A stretch of 62,689 nucleotides of DNA, the filler included, from a bacterium (GTDB lineage Bacteria; JAMORN01): assembly GCA_027063545.1 (NCBI GenBank). It is 11 parts of 11 records of this genome, joined end to end, with 100 filler letters (N's around TTAATTAATTAA, not from the genome) between each part and the next. Parts side by side here need not be neighbours in the genome. Positions count along the whole stretch, not along the records: positions 3,222 to 4,722 come from JAMORN010000113.1; 10 more parts are not named here. One strand, written 5' to 3'. This document shows, one piece after another, positions 2,618 through 48,826 of this stretch; within the stretch, counting starts at the first letter, position 1; the number at the start of each line of letters is the position of its first letter. The notes below the pieces were generated by a model that saw nothing but the letters and a program-made list of their open reading frames with translations, did no database searches and was not told the DNA's origin. A program made the translations under genes and the position numbers.

Positions 2618-3121
2618 TTAACTATTTTGCATAAGATTAGTTATATGTTTTTTAAAAACTTCAATAGATTTTTTATTATATATTAATTTATTTTCTAAAG
2701 GTGTATTTAAAATCTTTTTAGATAATTCTTTGATTTTTTCTTTGTTTTTTAGAAGTTCTATAGTTTTTTCAATATATTCATCTACAGAGTAAACAACAAG
2801 TTCATTAAGCCCTATTTCCATAAGCGCTGCGCTTCCAGTATTTTGAAAACCACATTTCCCTCTTAAAGATATAAAAGGTGTTCCAACCCATAAACTATCA
2901 ACAACAACATTATATTCACCATAAGGAAATGATCCTAAAGCAATATCACATTGTTTTATAATGTTAAGATATTCTTCATAAGGTTTATATACGTATTGAA
3001 TCATGGATTCGCCGAAAATATTATATAATTCATCTTTGAGGATAGGGAGTTCTTGGGCAACTACACCGCCATATAAAATATGGAATCTAGTATAATATGG
3101 TAATTTATCTTTAATTTTTTT
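2618..3121 (-). CDS. GT41-family (HMW1C/SPINDLY-like) glycosyltransferase, C-terminal fragment
   Basis: PYEEYLNIIKQCDIALGSFPYGEYNVVVDSLWVGTPFISLRG and ELVVYSVDEYIEKTIEL. The frame appears open to the contig end. Confidence 0.7.
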   Translation of the reverse strand, partial: KKIKDKLPYYTRFHILYGGVVAQELPILKDELYNIFGESMIQYVYKPYEEYLNIIKQCDIALGSFPYGEYNVVVDSLWVGTPFISLRGKCGFQNTGSAALMEIGLNELVVYSVDEYIEKTIELLKNKEKIKELSKKILNTPLENKLIYNKKSIEVFKKHITNLMQNS

Positions 3122-3221
3122 NNNNNNNNNNNNNNNNNNNNNNNNNNNNNNNNNNNNNNNNNNNNTTAATTAATTAANNNNNNNNNNNNNNNNNNNNNNN
3201 NNNNNNNNNNNNNNNNNNNNN
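3122..3221. other. Artificial contig linker
   Basis: N44-TTAATTAATTAA-N44. Confidence 0.98.
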
Positions 3222-3877
3222 TCTATTAGGCTTCTTGTCGGCATATAACAGGGAACTATCCCCTCCTTCTCATAGTAAGGCGGAATTGTTCTATATAACG
3301 CTACTTTTTTTGTGTTTACATCAAATCTATCACACGGAAGCGGTTTTGAAGGAGTGGTTTCATCTATCATAAAACTCTTGTCTTTTCCAATTTCTTCAAT
3401 AATGAAATTTTTAATTTTTCCAAATCCCATATTGCCTTTTTTTCCTATAAATCTTACATTTTCTAAAAGATTGTTGATAATATCTTTGTTACCTTTTACA
3501 TAAAAATAAATATTATCAATAATTAATGCTTCCATTCCAAATTTAAAAGCTTTAAATTCCCCTCTTCCTGTATCTATTTTTTTACCTGTAAGCTCATATA
3601 TTCTTTTTTCTTCGGGTTTTTTAGTAATTATCACATTATATGGTAGAACTAAATTATCATCATTTTCTATATACCAAATACTACCACTTAATATTCCTTT
3701 TTGTTTATCAAGCCAATCAATTTTATCAATATAATCTTCCGTTTTTATAAAACCATCTATTTTCTTTTCCTTTCTTAAAAGATTGAAAAAAGAATTTAAC
3801 AGGATATTATCTATTGTTAAATATCTGTTTAGAATAACGGGTGTGGATAAATTAAACGTTATTTTTAAGTTTTCCAT
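3222..3877 (-). CDS. csf3: Type IV CRISPR-associated Csf3 (Cas5-group RAMP), truncated at contig end
   Basis: N-terminal LKITFNLSTPV...LTIDNILL, central IDTGRGEFKAF, FYVKGNKDIINNLL, G-rich loop IGKKGNMGFGKI, then KPLP and RTIPPYY...CYMP, in the order expected for Csf3. AAGGAG RBS. Confidence 0.8.
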
Positions 3878-3886
3878 AAATTCTCC

Positions 3887-4555
3887 TTAAATATTTTTTT
3901 CTTTAAGTTCGCCCCAACCTAATCCTATTTTATAACCTACAAATCTTGGAAGAGAATAATTTGAAGCCAATTTTAGATATACTGCTTGATATTTTTTTAA
4001 ACCTTCCTTATAATCTACTAACCTAATATCGTTTTCTTGAATAATTAAATTCAAATCATCTAAATAATCCAAGTCTATATTAAAATACTCTTTAGCAAAT
4101 AACTTGGTAGAATGAATTATTCTGTGTTGAATATATTTTATTAAGTCTTTTTTGTTTTGAGTATTTGTGGCATATACAATTTTATATTCTACGGGATTTG
4201 TTGATAATATGATAGGTGTTCGTGTTTGATAAAAATATAAACCCGGCTGTGGTATTGTAAAATCTTCGCTTTTTAATTCTATATCTTCTATCTTTATTTT
4301 TTTACCCCCTAAGAATATATTATTTTTTATACTCTCAAGCTTCTTTAATATATGATGCATTAATCTATAATCATTTATATAATTTATTATTTCAAATCCT
4401 TTTTTATAAGGCTTTGCGTAGATAATTTTTGGAGGTTTTCGTTTGTGCCACATTACCTCATCTTTAAATTCATTATCAACGATAGAGCCTAATAAATTTC
4501 TTATATCTCTTGGTTTTACGTTTTTAAGTTCTTTGGTTTTTACAAAAATTTTCAT
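3887..4555 (-). CDS. cas6: Cas6-family crRNA-processing endoribonuclease (Cas6b/Csf5-like)
   Basis: YQTRTPIIL strand and C-terminal G-rich loop LPRFVGYKIGLGWG. Lies between CRISPR repeats and csf3. The likely start is the ATG at 4555 (AAAGGA RBS), not 4588. Confidence 0.75.
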   Translation of the reverse strand: MKIFVKTKELKNVKPRDIRNLLGSIVDNEFKDEVMWHKRKPPKIIYAKPYKKGFEIINYINDYRLMHHILKKLESIKNNIFLGGKKIKIEDIELKSEDFTIPQPGLYFYQTRTPIILSTNPVEYKIVYATNTQNKKDLIKYIQHRIIHSTKLFAKEYFNIDLDYLDDLNLIIQENDIRLVDYKEGLKKYQAVYLKLASNYSLPRFVGYKIGLGWGELKEKNI

Positions 4556-4591
4556 ATCAAATCCTTTCATATTTATAAAATCTGTCATATT

Positions 4592-4689
4592 TTTTTATCC
4601 CATCATATATTTTTTATAAACAGAGAAATGGGTAATCTAGATTGGAGTTTTGAATACAACTTTAAACCAACCATATGTTCTTTATAAAC
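4592..4689 (-). CRISPR. CRISPR array remnant: repeat, 38-nt spacer, degenerate terminal repeat; probably continues beyond the contig end
   Basis: On the minus strand, 4689-4660 is GTTTATAAAGAACATATGGTTGGTTTAAAG, 4659-4622 is the spacer TTGTATTCAAAACTCCAATCTAGATTACCCATTTCTCT, and 4621-4592 is GTTTATAAAAAATATATGATGGGATAAAAA (23/30 identical, no gaps). Adjacent to cas6. A further 33 nt upstream could be a partial spacer. Confidence 0.7.
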
Positions 4690-4722
4690 AACTAACAAGC
4701 CTCTTTTTCAGGTCTGTTTTCT

Positions 4723-4822
4723 NNNNNNNNNNNNNNNNNNNNNNNNNNNNNNNNNNNNNNNNNNNNTTAATTAATTAANNNNNNNNNNNNNNNNNNNNNN
4801 NNNNNNNNNNNNNNNNNNNNNN
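4723..4822. other. Artificial contig linker
   Basis: N44-TTAATTAATTAA-N44. Confidence 0.98.
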
Positions 4823-10176: not shown

Positions 10177-11019
10177 CTTATAAGCCATTATTAAAGCAGC
10201 AGCTATATCAATCTCAGCATCAGAAGCCGGAACACCCGGCTGTTTTACTACTACTTGCTCATAATCTCTATCATAGTAAGCTATCCAACTATAGAAAAAA
10301 TAATTACTCTGAGCCCATCCTAAATACTTCTCTGCATCTGTCCAAACACTATCAAATATAGGTTTATCACCCATAAGGACTGCTAGCATCATTCCATAAG
10401 CAACACCCTCAGATGTAAAAGCACCATTAGAATTAGCATAAGTATTATAATAATCAAAAACTAACCAGTTATCTCCTTTATAACGGCTAGAATTAGGTAA
10501 AATAAATGTTTTTCTAAAATGTCTCCATAAACTTTGAGCTATTTCCCACCATTGCTCAGAATTTGTTGATTTATAACTTGTTAAAGGTACATTATAATTA
10601 TCTGGAGTATATATTGTTGGGTCAAACTCTGAAGTATTATGCGATGTATTGTCTGAGGTATCATCTTCTGTGGTTGTATTATCAGAAGAGTTATCTTCAT
10701 TTGTAGAAGCATTATCTGTATTGTCTGTGTTATCTGTTGTATTATCATTATTTGTGGTTGTATTATCATCATTAGATGTAGAGTTACTATTATTAGTATT
10801 ATCCTTCTCAGATGTATTATCTGCTGTATTATTATCCTGTTGGTTATCTTCTTCTGTGGTAGAAGTATTGTTATCTGTTGTATCATATTGATTTGATATA
10901 TCAATTACTATAGGGTTATCTTCTGTTTGGGTTGTTGTTTTTTCTTCAGAATCAGAACAACTTAAAAGATAAAATGAAAGTATTATAAACATAATAAACA
11001 CATATAAACTTTTCTTCAT
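10177..11019 (-). CDS. GH8-family glycoside hydrolase lipoprotein, truncated
   Basis: Lipobox LLSC, long D/N/T/S linker, GH8 motifs TSEGVAYGMMLAV and ASDAEIDIAAALIMA. The AGGAGG RBS favours the ATG at 11019. Confidence 0.85.
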
Positions 11020-11104
11020 ACACACCTCCTTTTTTTATATTTGCCTAATCTATTAGAAAAAAATAAATTATTGAAATGATTATAAAAAATTTTTCTATGA
11101 TTTT

Positions 11105-11935
11105 TTATAGATTACGCAGAAACTCTCTGATTTTAAGGTAATATCCCTTATTTTTTATAATATGTTTTTTGGAAAACTTTTTATTATAAATTATGGATAC
11201 TGGTTGGACTAAAATTAAACTATTTGTTAATATAACCTCATCTGCTTGCCTAAGAAATTTCAAAGGAAAACCCCGGCTTTTTTTTATAATTTTCTTAAAA
11301 CCTAAATCTTGATAGTTTTCTATTATTATCTTTTGTATAATTCCTTCTAAATAAGGCTCAAATGGTTCTACATAATATAAATTCTTGTTATAAACTACCA
11401 ATATATTTGTTATTGTTCCTTCTATAATTCTGCCTTTTTTATTGATAAAAAGCACTTCATCTATATTATAATTTTTTTTATATAAATCCCTTAAATAAAC
11501 ATTTTTCATATAGTTCATAGTCTTGTATTTTTTCAAAAAATCCTCTGTAATCTCTTTATGAATAAAACATTTGTAAAATTTATCTTCTCTAATATATGGA
11601 TATATCTGAACTAAAAAATCAACTCTTTTTTTATTAAAAAAATCACCATATATTATTTTTATTTTATGTGAATCTTTCGGCGAATTAACCCTTCTTAAAA
11701 TAAAATCTAAAACTTTATCTTCTGATATATAATCAAAATTATATAAATAATCTGGGTAGAAAGTAGCTATAGTATTTTTCATTCGCTCTAAATGCAAAGC
11801 ATAAAAGTATAACTTACTATTTTCAAATAAAATTGTCTCAAAAAAGCCATATCCATAATTAAACATATATGAATTTAAAAAAGAAGATGTTAAAAATGAT
11901 AAATCTTTATAAATCTTGCCATTAAATAAAAACAT
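11105..11935 (-). CDS. pabC: Aminotransferase class IV, probable 4-amino-4-deoxychorismate lyase
   Basis: YGYGFFET, HLERM, KTMNY, EGTITN, LEGI, LTNSL; lies downstream of pabAB. Confidence 0.8.
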   Translation of the reverse strand: MFLFNGKIYKDLSFLTSSFLNSYMFNYGYGFFETILFENSKLYFYALHLERMKNTIATFYPDYLYNFDYISEDKVLDFILRRVNSPKDSHKIKIIYGDFFNKKRVDFLVQIYPYIREDKFYKCFIHKEITEDFLKKYKTMNYMKNVYLRDLYKKNYNIDEVLFINKKGRIIEGTITNILVVYNKNLYYVEPFEPYLEGIIQKIIIENYQDLGFKKIIKKSRGFPLKFLRQADEVILTNSLILVQPVSIIYNKKFSKKHIIKNKGYYLKIREFLRNL

Positions 11936-13202
11936 TGTTCAACACCTTTTCTATATTTTGTGCTTTATATAAAATCTCTTTATATTCTTCAACGGGATCT
12001 GATAATAAAGTAATACCTCCACCCACTCCATATCTTAAAAATCCTTTGTAAAACTCTATTGTTCTTATTAAAATATTAAAATTTAATTCATTATTAAAAA
12101 AAATATATCCAAAACTTCCTGTATATATACCTCTTGGATATTTTTCTAATTCTTCAATAATTTGCATACTTCGTATTTTAGGGCATCCTGTTATACTTCC
12201 CCCTGGAAATAAAGCTCTAAAAATCTTTTCTATATTAAAATCTTCTATTTCTCCTTCTATATCTGAATATAGATGAATAACATTATTTAGTGTTTTTATT
12301 ATTGGGAAATTTTTTACTACAACCGAGCCAACTATACAAAATCTAGAAATATCGTTTCTTATTAAATCAACAATCATAGCAAGCTCACTTAAATTTTTTT
12401 TTGTCAAAAGATACTTTTTTATGTCTTCCATATTATTTTTGTTCTTTATAGTTCCTTTTATTGGAGAAGAAACTATTTTGTTACTTTTAACATAAAAAAA
12501 TCTCTCTGGAGAAGTAGAAATAATATACTTTTCATCACTAATTTTAGCAATCACACCAAAATCTATAAAATTAGAATTGTACAATTTATAGGAAAGAGTA
12601 AAAAAATCTATATTTGTTTTGTAAATAACCTTTCTTGTTAAGTTAACCTGATAAACATCTCCAGCTCTTATATAATCCTTTATTTTTTTTACATTTTTTA
12701 TAAACTCTTCTTCTGTTTGAGTATGATAAACTAATTCTATCTTATACTTAGATAAATTTATCTTTTTATTATTTGAATTTAAATCTCTTTCAGTGTTAAC
12801 TTTAATTAAAATAGCTGTTTCATCTTCATTTTTGTAAATTATATAATAATTAAATAAAGCAAAATAAAACAACGGAAAAACGTCATCTTCTATCCCATTA
12901 AAAAAATTTTTTCGTTCAATATAATGTTTATAATCATAAGATATATATCCTAATAATCCCCAATAATTATATTTATTTACTTTATGTCTATACTCTAAAA
13001 ATAGATTAAATAGATTATTTAAAAAATCTTTTCTTGTTTGTTCTAAACCATCATCTATAATTTCTAAAAAAGGGGAAATCCCTATAATATTTAAGGAATT
13101 ATACTCGGTATTTGAAAATAAATATATCCCTTTATATTCATTTATCCAAAAAAGTATATCCTCAAAATTAGGCTTTGAAATTTTACGGACTTCTATAAAC
13201 AT
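11922..13202 (-). CDS. pabB: Aminodeoxychorismate synthase component I
   Basis: GDVYQVNLT, SPERF, PIKGT (PabB-type), MIVDLIRND, FPGGSITGCPK. Confidence 0.9.
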   Translation of the reverse strand: MFIEVRKISKPNFEDILFWINEYKGIYLFSNTEYNSLNIIGISPFLEIIDDGLEQTRKDFLNNLFNLFLEYRHKVNKYNYWGLLGYISYDYKHYIERKNFFNGIEDDVFPLFYFALFNYYIIYKNEDETAILIKVNTERDLNSNNKKINLSKYKIELVYHTQTEEEFIKNVKKIKDYIRAGDVYQVNLTRKVIYKTNIDFFTLSYKLYNSNFIDFGVIAKISDEKYIISTSPERFFYVKSNKIVSSPIKGTIKNKNNMEDIKKYLLTKKNLSELAMIVDLIRNDISRFCIVGSVVVKNFPIIKTLNNVIHLYSDIEGEIEDFNIEKIFRALFPGGSITGCPKIRSMQIIEELEKYPRGIYTGSFGYIFFNNELNFNILIRTIEFYKGFLRYGVGGGITLLSDPVEEYKEILYKAQNIEKVLNNVFI

Positions 13203-13803
13203 AATCTTTAAAAAAATTTTTTATTATCTTATCTCCATTTTCTGTTAAAAAACTCTCAGGATGAAATTGTACTCCAAAAAAAGGTTTATTTTTCACCTTT
13301 AATGCCATAGGTATTTTCTCTTCTTTTGAAATAATCTCATAGGCTAAATAGTTTATATAGTTATTTGTTTTAAAAGAAACCTGTAAGGAATTATATCTTG
13401 CTGCTTTAAAAGGTGATGGAAGATTTGAAAATATATATTCACTATTGTGATATATATCTACTTGCTGACCATGTTTAGGATATTTTGACGGATAAATATC
13501 TATTCCAAAAAAATAGGATAAAAATTGGAATCCTAAACATACCCCAAAGGTTGGGATATCTTCTTTTATAACAATTTTTTTAAAAATTTCATTTAAATAT
13601 CCTGTTTCTTTAGGTGTCATAGGGCCTGGAGAGATAAAAAAAGCTGATATTTTTTCTTTTAATATTGTTAGTAAATTAGGATCATCATTTCTTAGTACAA
13701 ATATATTATAGTTTTTTCTATCTTTTTGGAGAATACTTTCTACTTGATGTTTTAAATTAAATGTAAAAGAATCATAATTATCTATTATTAATACCTTTAT
13801 CAT
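13183..13803 (-). CDS. pabA: Aminodeoxychorismate/anthranilate synthase glutamine amidotransferase component II
   Basis: IDNYDSFTFNL, SPGP, GVCLGFQ, GVQFHPES. Confidence 0.9.
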   Translation of the reverse strand: MIKVLIIDNYDSFTFNLKHQVESILQKDRKNYNIFVLRNDDPNLLTILKEKISAFFISPGPMTPKETGYLNEIFKKIVIKEDIPTFGVCLGFQFLSYFFGIDIYPSKYPKHGQQVDIYHNSEYIFSNLPSPFKAARYNSLQVSFKTNNYINYLAYEIISKEEKIPMALKVKNKPFFGVQFHPESFLTENGDKIIKNFFKDYVYRSP

Positions 13804-33695: not shown

Positions 33696-35243
33696 CTATT
33701 TTTCCCTAAAAAGAAGATTCAATCCATTAACAATAGCTTTTATATTTGCCTCTCTAGTATCTGGATCCATACCCCTTGCTATTACTGATTTTCCTGTATT
33801 TAAATTCTTTAATTTTATAGTTGTTAAAGCCTGCGCAGAAGAACCTTTTTGTTCAATATCAAAAGCCTCTTGTGCAAACTCTTCTAACTTTAAATTAAAG
33901 CCATGACTATTTAATAGATTAATAAAAGCATCTATCGGTCCATCACCAACGCATTCATCCTTTATTATCTTATCATTATATTGAAGCTTTAAAAAATAAA
34001 ATTGATTACCATCTTCTTTATGAAGTTCCTTAAATTCTAAAACTTTAAAAGGTCCATCCACATTTAATATATGCTTTTTATACTCTTCTACTATATCATT
34101 AAAATCTAATGCTCCCTTCTCCTCAGCTTTTTTCTTAAGAACTGGTTGTAAATAAGTTGCTTCCTCTATTGTTATTGGCCATTTATGAGATGATAAAATC
34201 TCATATATAGCACTTTTACCTGATTGGCTTGTAAACTCTAATATCTCACCTTTTCTTCCTATAAACTCTGGATCAATAGGTCTATAAGCACCTTTTTTCA
34301 TGTTCTTTGTCTTTATACTACCATCTTGATGAATACCACTTCTATGAGCCAAAGCATCCCTTCCTATCAAAGGAGCCTTCTCACAAATTGGCACACCTGA
34401 TAACTCCTCAACCAATAACGCTGTTTCATAAATCTTTGAAAAATTAAGATCTACAGGAACCCCACAATTATATAAACTTACTGCTACCTCATATAAATTA
34501 GTATTTCCTGCCCTCTCTCCCAATCCATTTAGTGTAACCTCAAGCTGTGTTGCCCCAGCAAAAAAACTTTCCACAGTTGTTGCTGTTGCCTGTCCCAAAT
34601 CATTATGACAATGAACAGAAATTATAGCCTTATCACCTATTCTTTCTACAACCCTTTTAACCATATTAACAAATGTAGAAACCCTGTATCTTTCAACTGT
34701 ATTTGGAAGATTTATAATTGAAGCTCCTGCTTCTATTACCTTCTCAAAAGTTTCTATTACAAAATCAAGATTCTCTAAGCTATCACCAAAATGCTCTGCT
34801 GAAAACTGAACCTCTCCTTTTTCACCTAAAAGACTCTTTGCATAAGCTACCATCTCGACAGCTATCTTTTGAACATCTTTAGGATCCTTCTTTAAAACAT
34901 ATTTCATAGCAAATGGAGATAGAGCTATAAATGTATGAATTCTAGGTTTTTTTGCATCTTTTATAGCCTCATAAGCTTTATTTATATCATATTCCTTTGC
35001 CCTTGCTAAAGTAGAAACAACAACTTTATCATTTGCTAAAGAAGCTAAATGTTTAACAGCATCAAAATCCATATCACTTGCCGCAGCAAATCCCACTTCT
35101 ATTCCCTGAACACCTAACTCTAATAACGCTTTAAAAACAATCTCTTTTTCCTTTATATTCCAAGGCTTCTTTAAAGCCTGATTCCCGTCTCTTAATGTTA
35201 CATCATAAAAGAAAGGCTTTCTAGATACACCTGTTTCATTCAT
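33696..35243 (-). CDS. leuA: 2-isopropylmalate synthase
   Basis: DVTLRDGNQ, SVHCHNDLG, NGLGERAGN, HRSGIHQDG, and regulatory-domain GDGPIDA. The GGAGG RBS favours the ATG at 35243. Confidence 0.92.
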   Translation of the reverse strand: MNETGVSRKPFFYDVTLRDGNQALKKPWNIKEKEIVFKALLELGVQGIEVGFAAASDMDFDAVKHLASLANDKVVVSTLARAKEYDINKAYEAIKDAKKPRIHTFIALSPFAMKYVLKKDPKDVQKIAVEMVAYAKSLLGEKGEVQFSAEHFGDSLENLDFVIETFEKVIEAGASIINLPNTVERYRVSTFVNMVKRVVERIGDKAIISVHCHNDLGQATATTVESFFAGATQLEVTLNGLGERAGNTNLYEVAVSLYNCGVPVDLNFSKIYETALLVEELSGVPICEKAPLIGRDALAHRSGIHQDGSIKTKNMKKGAYRPIDPEFIGRKGEILEFTSQSGKSAIYEILSSHKWPITIEEATYLQPVLKKKAEEKGALDFNDIVEEYKKHILNVDGPFKVLEFKELHKEDGNQFYFLKLQYNDKIIKDECVGDGPIDAFINLLNSHGFNLKLEEFAQEAFDIEQKGSSAQALTTIKLKNLNTGKSVIARGMDPDTREANIKAIVNGLNLLFREK

Positions 35244-35388
35244 TTTTATCCTCCAGATGATTTTCAATTTTGTAATTATTTTAATATTATAATATATATT
35301 ATTATTATATAAAGTCAAATAATTTAGAGTATTAAAAAAATAAAAAAAATTTTAATTAAAATAAAAACTTATTTATTTTAAATAAGGT

Positions 35389-46459: not shown

Positions 46460-48826
46460 TTAATCTTGAATTTTCATACTTATTTTATTCCATAGGCTTT
46501 TTAAATCTTTTAATAAAACTTCAGATTTTTGAAGAATGTTCTCTTGATTCATTAGATATTCTATACTATTTCTTAACCCTCCAATGTTCTTTACAATAGT
46601 ATCTGCTTGTAATTGAATCTCCTGTAATTCTGCTTTTAATTGTTCTATATTTAATAAACTGGCCTTTAATAATTCTGTTTTTCTATTTATTTTTTCTATT
46701 TCCTTCTCTTTATCTTCAATTTCTTTTACCTTATACTCTATTGTATCTAATTTAGCTTTAAATCTATCTATATTTAGATTTAAACTATTGTACTTTTCCT
46801 CTATTTGATGTATAAAATCACTTAATCTTTCAAAAGAAATTCTAAACTCATTAGAACTTTCATATAAACTTTTTAATTTTTCTCGATAACTATTTATTTC
46901 TTCTATAACTTGTTGAAGTCCTTTTAAATATTCTCCTAGTGAACCTATATCTTTTTCTATATTGTCTTTATTACTTAAAAATCTATTAATCTTATCTAAC
47001 ATTTCATTTAATTCTTTAACCTTATTTTCTATTAATTCCTTTATATTTGTATAGGTATATGATACCTCTACTTTATATTTCTTTATCTCTTCAGGTAAAT
47101 TCTTTAAATATTCAATATCACTTTTTAAATTATTATATATGTTATATATTTCATTTTTAATACTCTTCCACTCTGTTAAGCTTCCTTTTATTTCTATTAT
47201 ATCTGTTTCCTTAGATTTTATCTCATCATAGGAATTAATAATATTATATACCAAGGCTTCTAATCTATTGAGATTATTTTTTAAGCCCTCTAAATTACTA
47301 AATTGGTTTTGAATTTCATTTATTGTTTGATTTATATTTTCTATTATAATACTTTTTCTTTCTAGATTCTCTAATTTTTCATTAAATTCTTCATAGGTTT
47401 TATTAAGAAAAGTAAATTTTTCTTCTATTTTATTTATAAATTCTACTATTTCCTTTAACTTAAAATAATCCTGTTTAATAAATTCTAAATCATTTATAAC
47501 ATCATAAACAATATTCTTTTCCTCCTCTATTTTACTATAATTTTCTTTCCATGAATCAATTATATATTCTATACTCTTTATTTTATTATCAATATCTACT
47601 AATTCATTTTCTAATCCTTTTTGTTTATCTTTAATATTGTCTACCTCTTTGGATATTATATCAAGTTCCTTTATTTTTTTCTCTATTGTATCTACATTTT
47701 TAAATAATTGTTGTAACTTTACAGATAATTCTTGTAAACTATTATACTTTTCTTCTAACTTACCTATCTCATTATGAACATTTTCTATATTCTCTTTAAT
47801 TCTAACTAACTCTTCATATTTGTCTTCGCTCTTTTTTATATTATCATTTATATATTCCAATAAGGTGTTATAATAAATAAGACTATTTTTCTTTTCCTCT
47901 AATATTTTTAATTCTTGTTCTATATTACTAATATTTCCTTGAGCCTCTATTATATAATCTATCTGGGACTTTATACTATTTAGAGACAATTTTAATTCTT
48001 CTATCTGCTTTTTATATTTATCAATATCTTTAAATTTTTTATTAATTATTGCTTTCTCTTCTATAAAACGACCCTCTATAGATTTTATTTCATTATATTT
48101 TTCTTTAATCTTCCATAGGGTTTTCTCTACTTCATAATAATCATCTAATACTTTATCTATAATATTTCTTTGTTTATCTATATGTTGAGTCTTTATTTCT
48201 ATGTATTCTATATCATCCTTTATTGAATCCACAACTCCTTTTATAGAAAAAACATCTTCTTGAATATATTCTAATAATGAATTTAAATTATCAATTTCCT
48301 TAATTTTTGTTTTCACCTCTTTTAGTTTAGTATCTAATAAATTTATATTATCCGAAATTTCTTTATACTCTTTCATTTTATTTTCAACCTCTATCTTAAA
48401 ATCTAGAAAAGTATCATATAACGAGGATATTTTTTCTATATACTTCCCTAAATTTGCTCCATCAGGTCCAGATAGATTTATAACATCCTCTAAAAGCATT
48501 CTAAATAACTGTGATTTTTCATCTATTCTAGCCTCAAATACTTTCATGCTATTTTCTATATTTTCTATATCCTGTTGAAGTTTATCTATATTTGATGCTA
48601 AATTAGTAAATTCTTTTAATTGTTCTCTTAAATTGTTTATATCCTCTATTGATTTTCTATAATTATCTAATTTTTCTTTTACTTTAATAAATTCCTTAAA
48701 ATTTTTGTTAAATTCTATTATCTCATTAGAGTATTTCTCTATCTTTTCCAATAAATATTCATATTTTTCTAAATTTAATCTTTTATCCTCTTTTTTCTTA
48801 AAAAATGATATTATAGCCTTAAGCAT
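46460..48826 (-). CDS. Long coiled-coil protein (788 aa) with no catalytic motif seen
   Basis: Continuous E/K/I/L-rich heptad pattern; no Walker A motif; start overlaps the stop of the upstream gene. Confidence 0.75.
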   Translation of the reverse strand: MLKAIISFFKKKEDKRLNLEKYEYLLEKIEKYSNEIIEFNKNFKEFIKVKEKLDNYRKSIEDINNLREQLKEFTNLASNIDKLQQDIENIENSMKVFEARIDEKSQLFRMLLEDVINLSGPDGANLGKYIEKISSLYDTFLDFKIEVENKMKEYKEISDNINLLDTKLKEVKTKIKEIDNLNSLLEYIQEDVFSIKGVVDSIKDDIEYIEIKTQHIDKQRNIIDKVLDDYYEVEKTLWKIKEKYNEIKSIEGRFIEEKAIINKKFKDIDKYKKQIEELKLSLNSIKSQIDYIIEAQGNISNIEQELKILEEKKNSLIYYNTLLEYINDNIKKSEDKYEELVRIKENIENVHNEIGKLEEKYNSLQELSVKLQQLFKNVDTIEKKIKELDIISKEVDNIKDKQKGLENELVDIDNKIKSIEYIIDSWKENYSKIEEEKNIVYDVINDLEFIKQDYFKLKEIVEFINKIEEKFTFLNKTYEEFNEKLENLERKSIIIENINQTINEIQNQFSNLEGLKNNLNRLEALVYNIINSYDEIKSKETDIIEIKGSLTEWKSIKNEIYNIYNNLKSDIEYLKNLPEEIKKYKVEVSYTYTNIKELIENKVKELNEMLDKINRFLSNKDNIEKDIGSLGEYLKGLQQVIEEINSYREKLKSLYESSNEFRISFERLSDFIHQIEEKYNSLNLNIDRFKAKLDTIEYKVKEIEDKEKEIEKINRKTELLKASLLNIEQLKAELQEIQLQADTIVKNIGGLRNSIEYLMNQENILQKSEVLLKDLKSLWNKISMKIQD

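Follow-up and report, generated by a model that had tools for sequence, protein, structure and literature searches.

Features of the locus

A 1501-nt piece of the window (3222-4722) carries two adjoining cas genes and, upstream of them, a pair of repeat-like sequences with unique DNA around them (Table 1). On the minus strand, the order from 4722 is 33 nt of unique sequence, a 30-nt repeat, 38 nt of unique sequence, a degenerate copy of the repeat, an ORF of 233 codons and a second, open-ended ORF. The original prediction described this region as the end of a CRISPR array, and its coordinates and counts (repeat at 4689-4660, 38 nt, a 23/30 copy at 4621-4592 and 33 nt beyond) are all correct.

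The window, i.e. the whole stretch of DNA that was analysed (62,689 nt), consists of 11 contig pieces joined by artificial linkers of the form N44-TTAATTAATTAA-N44. Adjacent pieces may not be neighbours in the genome. Overall, the window has 61,689 non-N bases and 26% G+C. Since it is made of joined contigs, the contig end at 4722 is internal to the window and takes the form of an N-linker. ORFs that enter a linker are cut genes, for example 3170-3877, which includes a run of X, and 1039-1563. The piece with the repeats is identical to a 1501-nt metagenome contig (L012) and was grouped with the other pieces of the window by binning.

Table 1. Features in and around the array. L016 is a related locus and X1-X4 are public sequencing runs (see text).
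Feature	Position	Strand	Basis or remark
Artificial linkers, non-biological	1512-1611, 3122-3221, 4723-4822 and 7 more places	.	
Truncated spacer, 33 of 36 nt	4690..4722	-	Cut by contig end; remainder from X4 run contig
Canonical 30-nt CRISPR repeat GTTTATAAAGAACATATGGTTGGTTTAAAG	4660..4689	-	Sequence; run contigs of X1-X4; homology to related arrays
Last (probably oldest) spacer, 38 nt	4622..4659	-	Sequence; unchanged in one X1 and one X4 contig
Degenerate terminal repeat GTTTATAAAAAATATATGATGGGATAAAAA	4592..4621	-	23/30 ungapped against the canonical copy; 26/30 against the L016 terminal copy
Tandem duplication of 18 nt, 2.1 copies	4555..4592	-	TRF score 55; between terminal repeat and cas6
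cas6, type IV-E	3887..4555	-	PADLOC; ORF of 233 codons open from 4588, likely start 4555
Csf3 (Cas5) part of probable csf3-csf1 fusion	3222..3877	-	PADLOC; cut by contig end after 218 codons

Neighbouring cas genes

The ORF next to the repeats matches the PADLOC model Cas6_1_IVE with an E-value of 3.8e-33 over residues 21-230, and no I-B Cas6 model or IV-A Cas6 profile in PADLOC matches it at E <= 1. The gene is named by PADLOC only; Pfam, NCBIfam and PHROGs give no family for this ORF. A large protein collection contains 21 relatives, whose source names, where given, read 'hypothetical protein'. The start that is invariant across the 21 aligned sequences corresponds to M12 of the long ORF, so the start codon is probably at 4555-4553. 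This is 36 nt after the last repeat, so that the array is directly followed by cas6 and then by csf3(-csf1).

The second ORF matches the model Csf3-Csf1_0_IVE with an E-value of 1.3e-59, its first 216 residues falling on profile positions 1-214 of 479. Models of stand-alone Csf3 are weaker (9.4e-36), and the TIGR03116 csf3 match (4e-15) is under the cutoff of that family. The ORF is still open at 3222, and the Csf1 half would lie beyond the contig. The corresponding gene is fused in the relatives L004 (483 aa) and L013 (480 aa). There are no further cas genes among the 41 other ORFs of at least 150 aa in the window, which lacks cas7 and dinG, and type I models have no match to these ORFs at E <= 1e-5. 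Since the Csf1 half, cas7 and dinG are outside the window, the assignment to type IV-E rests on the two profile matches and on the relatives.

The first protein has the features of a Cas6 endoribonuclease, namely two RRM-like domains, a glycine-rich loop and a conserved histidine, and is predicted to be one from its structural model. G222, G224, G226 and H48 are invariant in the 21 sequences, and the C-terminal end has an invariant G-x-G-x-G-E loop. The AlphaFold (AF2) model, which was built on the alignment of the relatives, has a pLDDT of 89.1. In Foldseek it matches 52 Cas6 chains at E <= 0.001 over about 225-265 aligned columns, and the top matches are all Cas6. A search of the Cas6 profile against the sequences of solved structures gave no meaningful match, the best being a coat protein at E 1.2, and the 5 pattern matches to Cas6 relatives in viral contigs gave 0 confirmed cases.

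The original prediction attributed the repeat to an I-B-like system, and some of the evidence would fit an array of type I-B or a similar type that is processed by an I-B Cas6. The best fold matches of the model are Cas6b (4z7k_A, E 1.5e-9, TM 0.67/0.71) and the Pyrococcus furiosus Cas6 (3pkm, E 1.1e-8), both of which are enzymes of unstructured repeats. The window repeat is likewise unstructured (MFE -0.9 kcal/mol, z 0.33) and has a GTTT...AAAG outline. According to Pinilla-Redondo et al. (NAR 2020; PMC7038947), type IV repeats are similar to those of type I systems that occur alongside them, and the window array could accordingly be served in trans by a I-B adaptation module. However, the Cas6 chains of type IV-A are nearly equal in the fold search (7xfz, 8rc3 and 8rfj, TM 0.63-0.67; 7xfz_H has 0.64 and 8rfj_M 0.67), and the sequence identity to Cas6b and to the P. 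furiosus enzyme is only 13%. The sequence of the protein matches the IV-E model and no I-B model, and the next gene is a type IV csf3(-csf1). The I-B effector genes (Cas8b, Cas7, Cas5 and Cas3) do not adjoin the array, and the relatives carry csf2 and a IV-E dinG without cas3 or cas8b, so the genomic context is that of type IV and not of I-B or III. It is therefore very unlikely that this is a I-B array. The likeness to I-B holds for the fold, which is slightly closer to Cas6b and the P. furiosus Cas6 than to the type IV-A chains, and not for the sequence. Judging from the sequence matches, the system is very probably type IV-E and not type I-B.

Continuation of the array in public sequencing runs

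Taken by itself, the pair of copies is at chance level inside the window. Pairs of 30-mers with at least 23/30 identity at a spacing of 58-80 occur at 4 places in the non-N bases, although the other three are pure A/T runs. A repeat search of 423 nt gave two further pairs of similar quality. There is no second copy of the exact repeat in the window when up to 3 mismatches are allowed. TRF reports no repeat with a period of 68, and Rfam gives no match to a CRISPR-DR family, only two chance miRNA matches with E > 2. The array is thus missed by general repeat tools, as had been expected, and its significance comes only from evidence outside the window, i.e. from run contigs and related loci.

These window results would also be expected if two A/T-rich 30-mers before a gene were similar by chance and no array existed. 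This explanation is contradicted by contigs from four public runs, in which the repeat is followed by a new spacer and again by the repeat. Moreover, orthologous cas6 genes elsewhere are accompanied by arrays in which homologous repeats occur in 3-11 copies, and the genes that adjoin the window pair are cas genes. Chance similarity is therefore almost certainly not the cause of the pair.

Six listed public runs contain the contig 3222-4722 wholly or partly, five of them with at least half of its words. Those that have an organism label are hydrothermal-vent metagenomes, and none of the six is recorded as RNA. Contigs of four public runs (X1-X4) were aligned to 3222-4722. One of these runs is possibly the source sample of the contig and would therefore not be independent support.

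Short contigs in all four runs show the repeat, another spacer and the repeat again. At a joint from 4690 to 4658, the repeats are 32 letters apart in X1, X2 and X4, and these letters are identical in the three runs. A joint from 4689 to 4658 has 34 letters between the repeats in X3, and one from 4689 to 4660 has 36 letters in X4. One X4 contig also has a joint from 4722 to 4660, in which 3 letters are followed by the repeat from 4660. With repeat bounds of 4660-4689, the run contigs give three new spacers of 35, 36 and 36 nt, and the truncated spacer is complete at 36 nt in X4 and is followed by another repeat. Together with the run contigs there are at least three repeats with unique spacers of similar length, as expected of a CRISPR array, compared with two copies in the window alone.

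Because of these joints, the repeat bounds of 4660-4689 are right, the array is longer than the contig, and the assembly broke within it. The search for further copies thus bears out the original prediction, which had placed an assembly break inside a longer array and had given the same repeat bounds. A division into 36-nt repeats and 31-nt spacers, as in L002-L005, was also considered and was rejected since the run contigs bound the repeat at 4660-4689.

The last unit of the array varies between samples. A 202-nt contig of X4 matches 4602-4722, then diverges inside the degenerate copy and continues for about 80 more letters. The letters at the divergence would give the degenerate copy a canonical-looking 3' end of the GTTAAAAG kind. 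The X4 population looks like a strain variant in which the last repeat is less decayed and the tail of the array is possibly longer.

Related loci and direction of the array

Profile-guided scans found 10 related loci in species genomes and, not counting the contig of the window, 8 in metagenomes. The Campylobacter concisus plasmid pICON (NZ_CP021643.1) was found in addition. Eight of the loci have a Cas6 that is at least 46% identical to that of the window. Seven of these eight (L002, L003, L004, L005, L011, L014 and L016; copy counts include degenerate copies) have an array on the same strand that ends 0-33 nt before the cas6 start. The eighth, L013, has a Cas6 with 61% identity, and its array precedes cas7 and cas6. 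The most degenerate copy is nearest to cas6 in seven of the eight closest loci and also in the window.

The arrangement is more variable in the 11 more distant loci. The array is 57 nt upstream in L007 and L008 and 183 nt upstream in L009. Six of the 11 (L001, L010, L015, L017, L018 and L019) have one or more arrays 2-3.4 kb downstream of the cas6 start, and no array was seen at the remaining two (L006 and L020).

The relatives also show the genes that would be expected outside the contig. L004 has a complete row, which consists of dinG (Csf4_3_IVE, 4.4e-81), csf2/cas7, a small ORF, a three-repeat array, cas6, the csf3-csf1 gene and a second array. In L016 the row is cas7, array and cas6. L013 has a leader, the array, cas7, cas6, two small ORFs and the fusion gene.

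Second arrays downstream of csf3-csf1 are present in L004 (10241-10604), L005 (10268-10980) and L003 (7423-7786). The repeat of these second arrays has the same GGTTAAAA-type 3' end but a different 5' part, so one cas6 may serve two repeat variants. In L016, the C-terminal fragment of a TnpB/Cas12f-like protein is found at 1-186 (PADLOC E about 1e-7). Two repeat-like copies 59 nt apart occur in the same locus at 224-320, directly upstream of cas7, and may be the decayed remains of a mini-array. In L004, the stretch at 10744-13505 downstream of the IV-E locus encodes two candidate defence proteins of the PDC-S09 kind and a mad8-like protein (6.7e-11), which may indicate a defence island.

Compared with the canonical repeat of the window, the repeats of L013 are identical at 23/30 positions and those of L016, L007 and L008 at 22/30; these matches occur only on the cas6 strand. 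The repeats of the related arrays share the 3' end GGTT-N-AAA-G/C. The repeat homology and the conserved arrangement suggest that the repeat and Cas6 belong together and that the array reads toward cas6.

The opposite direction would require a real array that is transcribed from the plus strand, away from cas6. In that case, the leader would be the region from cas6 to the first repeat, with the degenerate copy at the leader end of the array. One plus-strand promoter-like site at 4582-4611 agrees with this. However, repeat decay is usual at the trailer end of arrays, and the position of the decayed copy next to cas6 in seven related loci does not fit a leader on that side. In L013, about 180 nt of non-coding DNA adjoin the array at its far end, and the degenerate copies are on the cas side. 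In pICON the array is downstream of the cas genes, reads in their direction and has its decayed copies at the far end. The cas-strand repeats end in GGTT-N-AAA-G/C, and this end resembles known 8-nt handles. Transcription away from cas6 is therefore unlikely. Judging by the related loci, the array very probably ends with the trailer repeat at 4621-4592, and its oldest spacer would be the one of 38 nt, in agreement with the original prediction.

Junction between the array and cas6

The tandem duplication between the terminal repeat and cas6 has AAAGGA in its second copy, 6 nt upstream of the conserved start codon, and an in-frame upstream ATG at 4588-4586 in its first copy. It makes two ATATGA-type boxes and two possible start codons in the same frame. 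The resulting 11-residue N-terminal extension is absent in 18 of 20 aligned relatives; P0002 and P0003 also carry N-terminal extensions. No minus-strand promoter-like or terminator-like site was found between the array and cas6, where the consensus test is weak because the DNA is 74% A+T. Since the decayed last repeat runs into the region of cas6 translation start, at least part of the expression of cas6 probably comes from read-through of the array.

It is possible, though doubtful, that the terminal unit (the 38-nt 'spacer' and the degenerate repeat) is a functional regulatory element of cas6, i.e. a repeat-like site for Cas6 binding or cleavage. This would be compatible with a IV-E array in the remaining DNA. 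The terminal copies of the window and L016 are 26/30 identical, compared with 22/30 for the canonical repeats of these two loci. The L016 copy extends to the cas6 ATG and includes AAAGGA as a Shine-Dalgarno sequence, and the window, L013 and L016 share a ATATGAAAGGAT motif ahead of cas6. However, the three loci compared are all A/T-rich and related, so shared ancestry of the 5' UTR explains the similarity equally well. In addition, the group of L002-L005 and L014 has its Shine-Dalgarno sequence after the last repeat and not inside it.

A related and similarly tentative suggestion is that a conserved variant of the repeat stands at the end of the array and also serves as the ribosome-binding region of cas6. 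Read-through of the array would in that case be the source of both cas6 and the fusion gene, and the action of Cas6 at this last repeat would form a feedback loop. If this is true, Cas6 binding or cutting at the last repeat would couple the synthesis of Cas6 to crRNA processing.

Candidate spacer target

The 34 nt at 4689-4722, which include the truncated spacer, have an exact match in the middle of contigs of 914, 1357 and 1386 nt in X1, X2 and X3. The depths of these contigs are 47.5, 14.1 and 161.1, respectively, compared with about 2-7 for the contigs over the cas genes. The flank before 4689 is not repeat-like in the matching contigs of X1 and X3. In the simplest interpretation, these contigs represent an abundant co-occurring element that carries a candidate protospacer.

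Searches of the collections gave no target. The 38-nt and 33-nt spacers had only chance matches to plasmids and phages (best E 0.3), and the whole 131-nt region had only chance matches to plasmids. An exact search of viral contigs with both spacers gave 0 and 0 matches, and among the 20 loci both spacers matched only the window's own contig. The proposed spacer search was thus negative in the phage, plasmid and viral collections and gave a candidate for the truncated spacer in three of the four runs. A candidate natural target that is abundant in the same samples could yield the first PAM and target type for IV-E.

Proposed function and comparison with known systems

The region 4592-4722 is very likely the promoter-distal (trailer) end of a genuine type IV-E CRISPR array, located upstream of cas6 and csf3(-csf1) on the same strand and broken by the assembly. 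The repeat of this array is 30 nt long, A/T-rich and unstructured, and the spacers are 35-38 nt. Transcription would start from a leader in the upstream DNA that is missing here and proceed toward cas6. The IV-E Cas6 would cut each repeat near its 3' end; the cut is expected 8 nt from the end, which would leave a GUUUAAAG-type 5' handle. The crRNAs may then be loaded into a Csf complex with a Csf2/Cas7 backbone and the Csf3-Csf1 fusion. By analogy with type IV-A, this complex and a DinG-type helicase could act against plasmids or other mobile elements by interference that needs no nuclease.

Type IV-E is described in PMC7038947 as a putative subtype with few examples from Campylobacter and Bacteroides. 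It is related to IV-A and associated with arrays, has a diverged DinG, and has Csf1 fused to Csf3. A 2024 review (PMC11127173) includes IV-E only as an entry in a list, and a term search of a 2021 review of type IV (PMC8175902) found no mention of it. Literature searches found no experimental work on IV-E. The window locus resembles the IV-E of PMC7038947 in the cas6 and csf3(-csf1) profile matches and in the association with an array. It differs in its source, which is a hydrothermal-vent metagenome and not a Campylobacter or Bacteroides isolate. The gene maps of that paper may already show arrays upstream of cas6.

The pICON plasmid has 30-nt A/T-rich repeats with a GTTT start and a GTTT-A-R-AA-S-type 3' end, which are similar to those of the window. 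However, the window Cas6 is only 34% identical to that of pICON. The order in pICON is fusion gene, cas6, cas7 and array with a divergent dinG, whereas in the window and its closest relatives the array is directly upstream of cas6 and within the row of genes.

Type IV-A (7xfz, 8rc3 and 8rfj) has the same kinds of parts, namely Cas6, Csf2, Csf3, Csf1 and DinG, of which Csf2, Csf1 and DinG are known here from the relatives. The Cas6 fold is similar, and IV-A offers a working model for interference without a nuclease. According to PMC11519345 and PMC12714560, IV-A acts without a nuclease via CasDinG, and the Csf-crRNA complex represses its targets. The two types differ in that Csf1 and Csf3 are separate in IV-A and the DinG of IV-E is diverged.

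The locus is a further member of a known, rare subtype. Taken alone, it is an ordinary assembly break in an ordinary array. Together with its relatives, it adds members from vents and other environments to IV-E, and it gives a repeat family with a conserved 3' end and an array directly before cas6. It also offers a lesson for annotation, since contigs of public runs can serve to validate an array stub with two copies at the end of a contig.

Other genes in the window

The neighbouring 1.5-kb piece has a gene of the LOG family, annotated as 'possible lysine decarboxylase' (2020-2595, PF03641, 1.9e-26), and a 128-aa ORF (2618-3004) that matches only the C-terminal end of Glyco_transf_41. Elsewhere in the window, NCBIfam identifies a LeuA2 of the 'IPMS_Lepto' kind at 33696-35318 (584 bits compared with a cutoff of 500) and a coiled-coil protein with SpiroCoCo and LA_3659 matches at 46460-48826. 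The NCBIfam matches hint at a spirochaete-like bacterium with low G+C.
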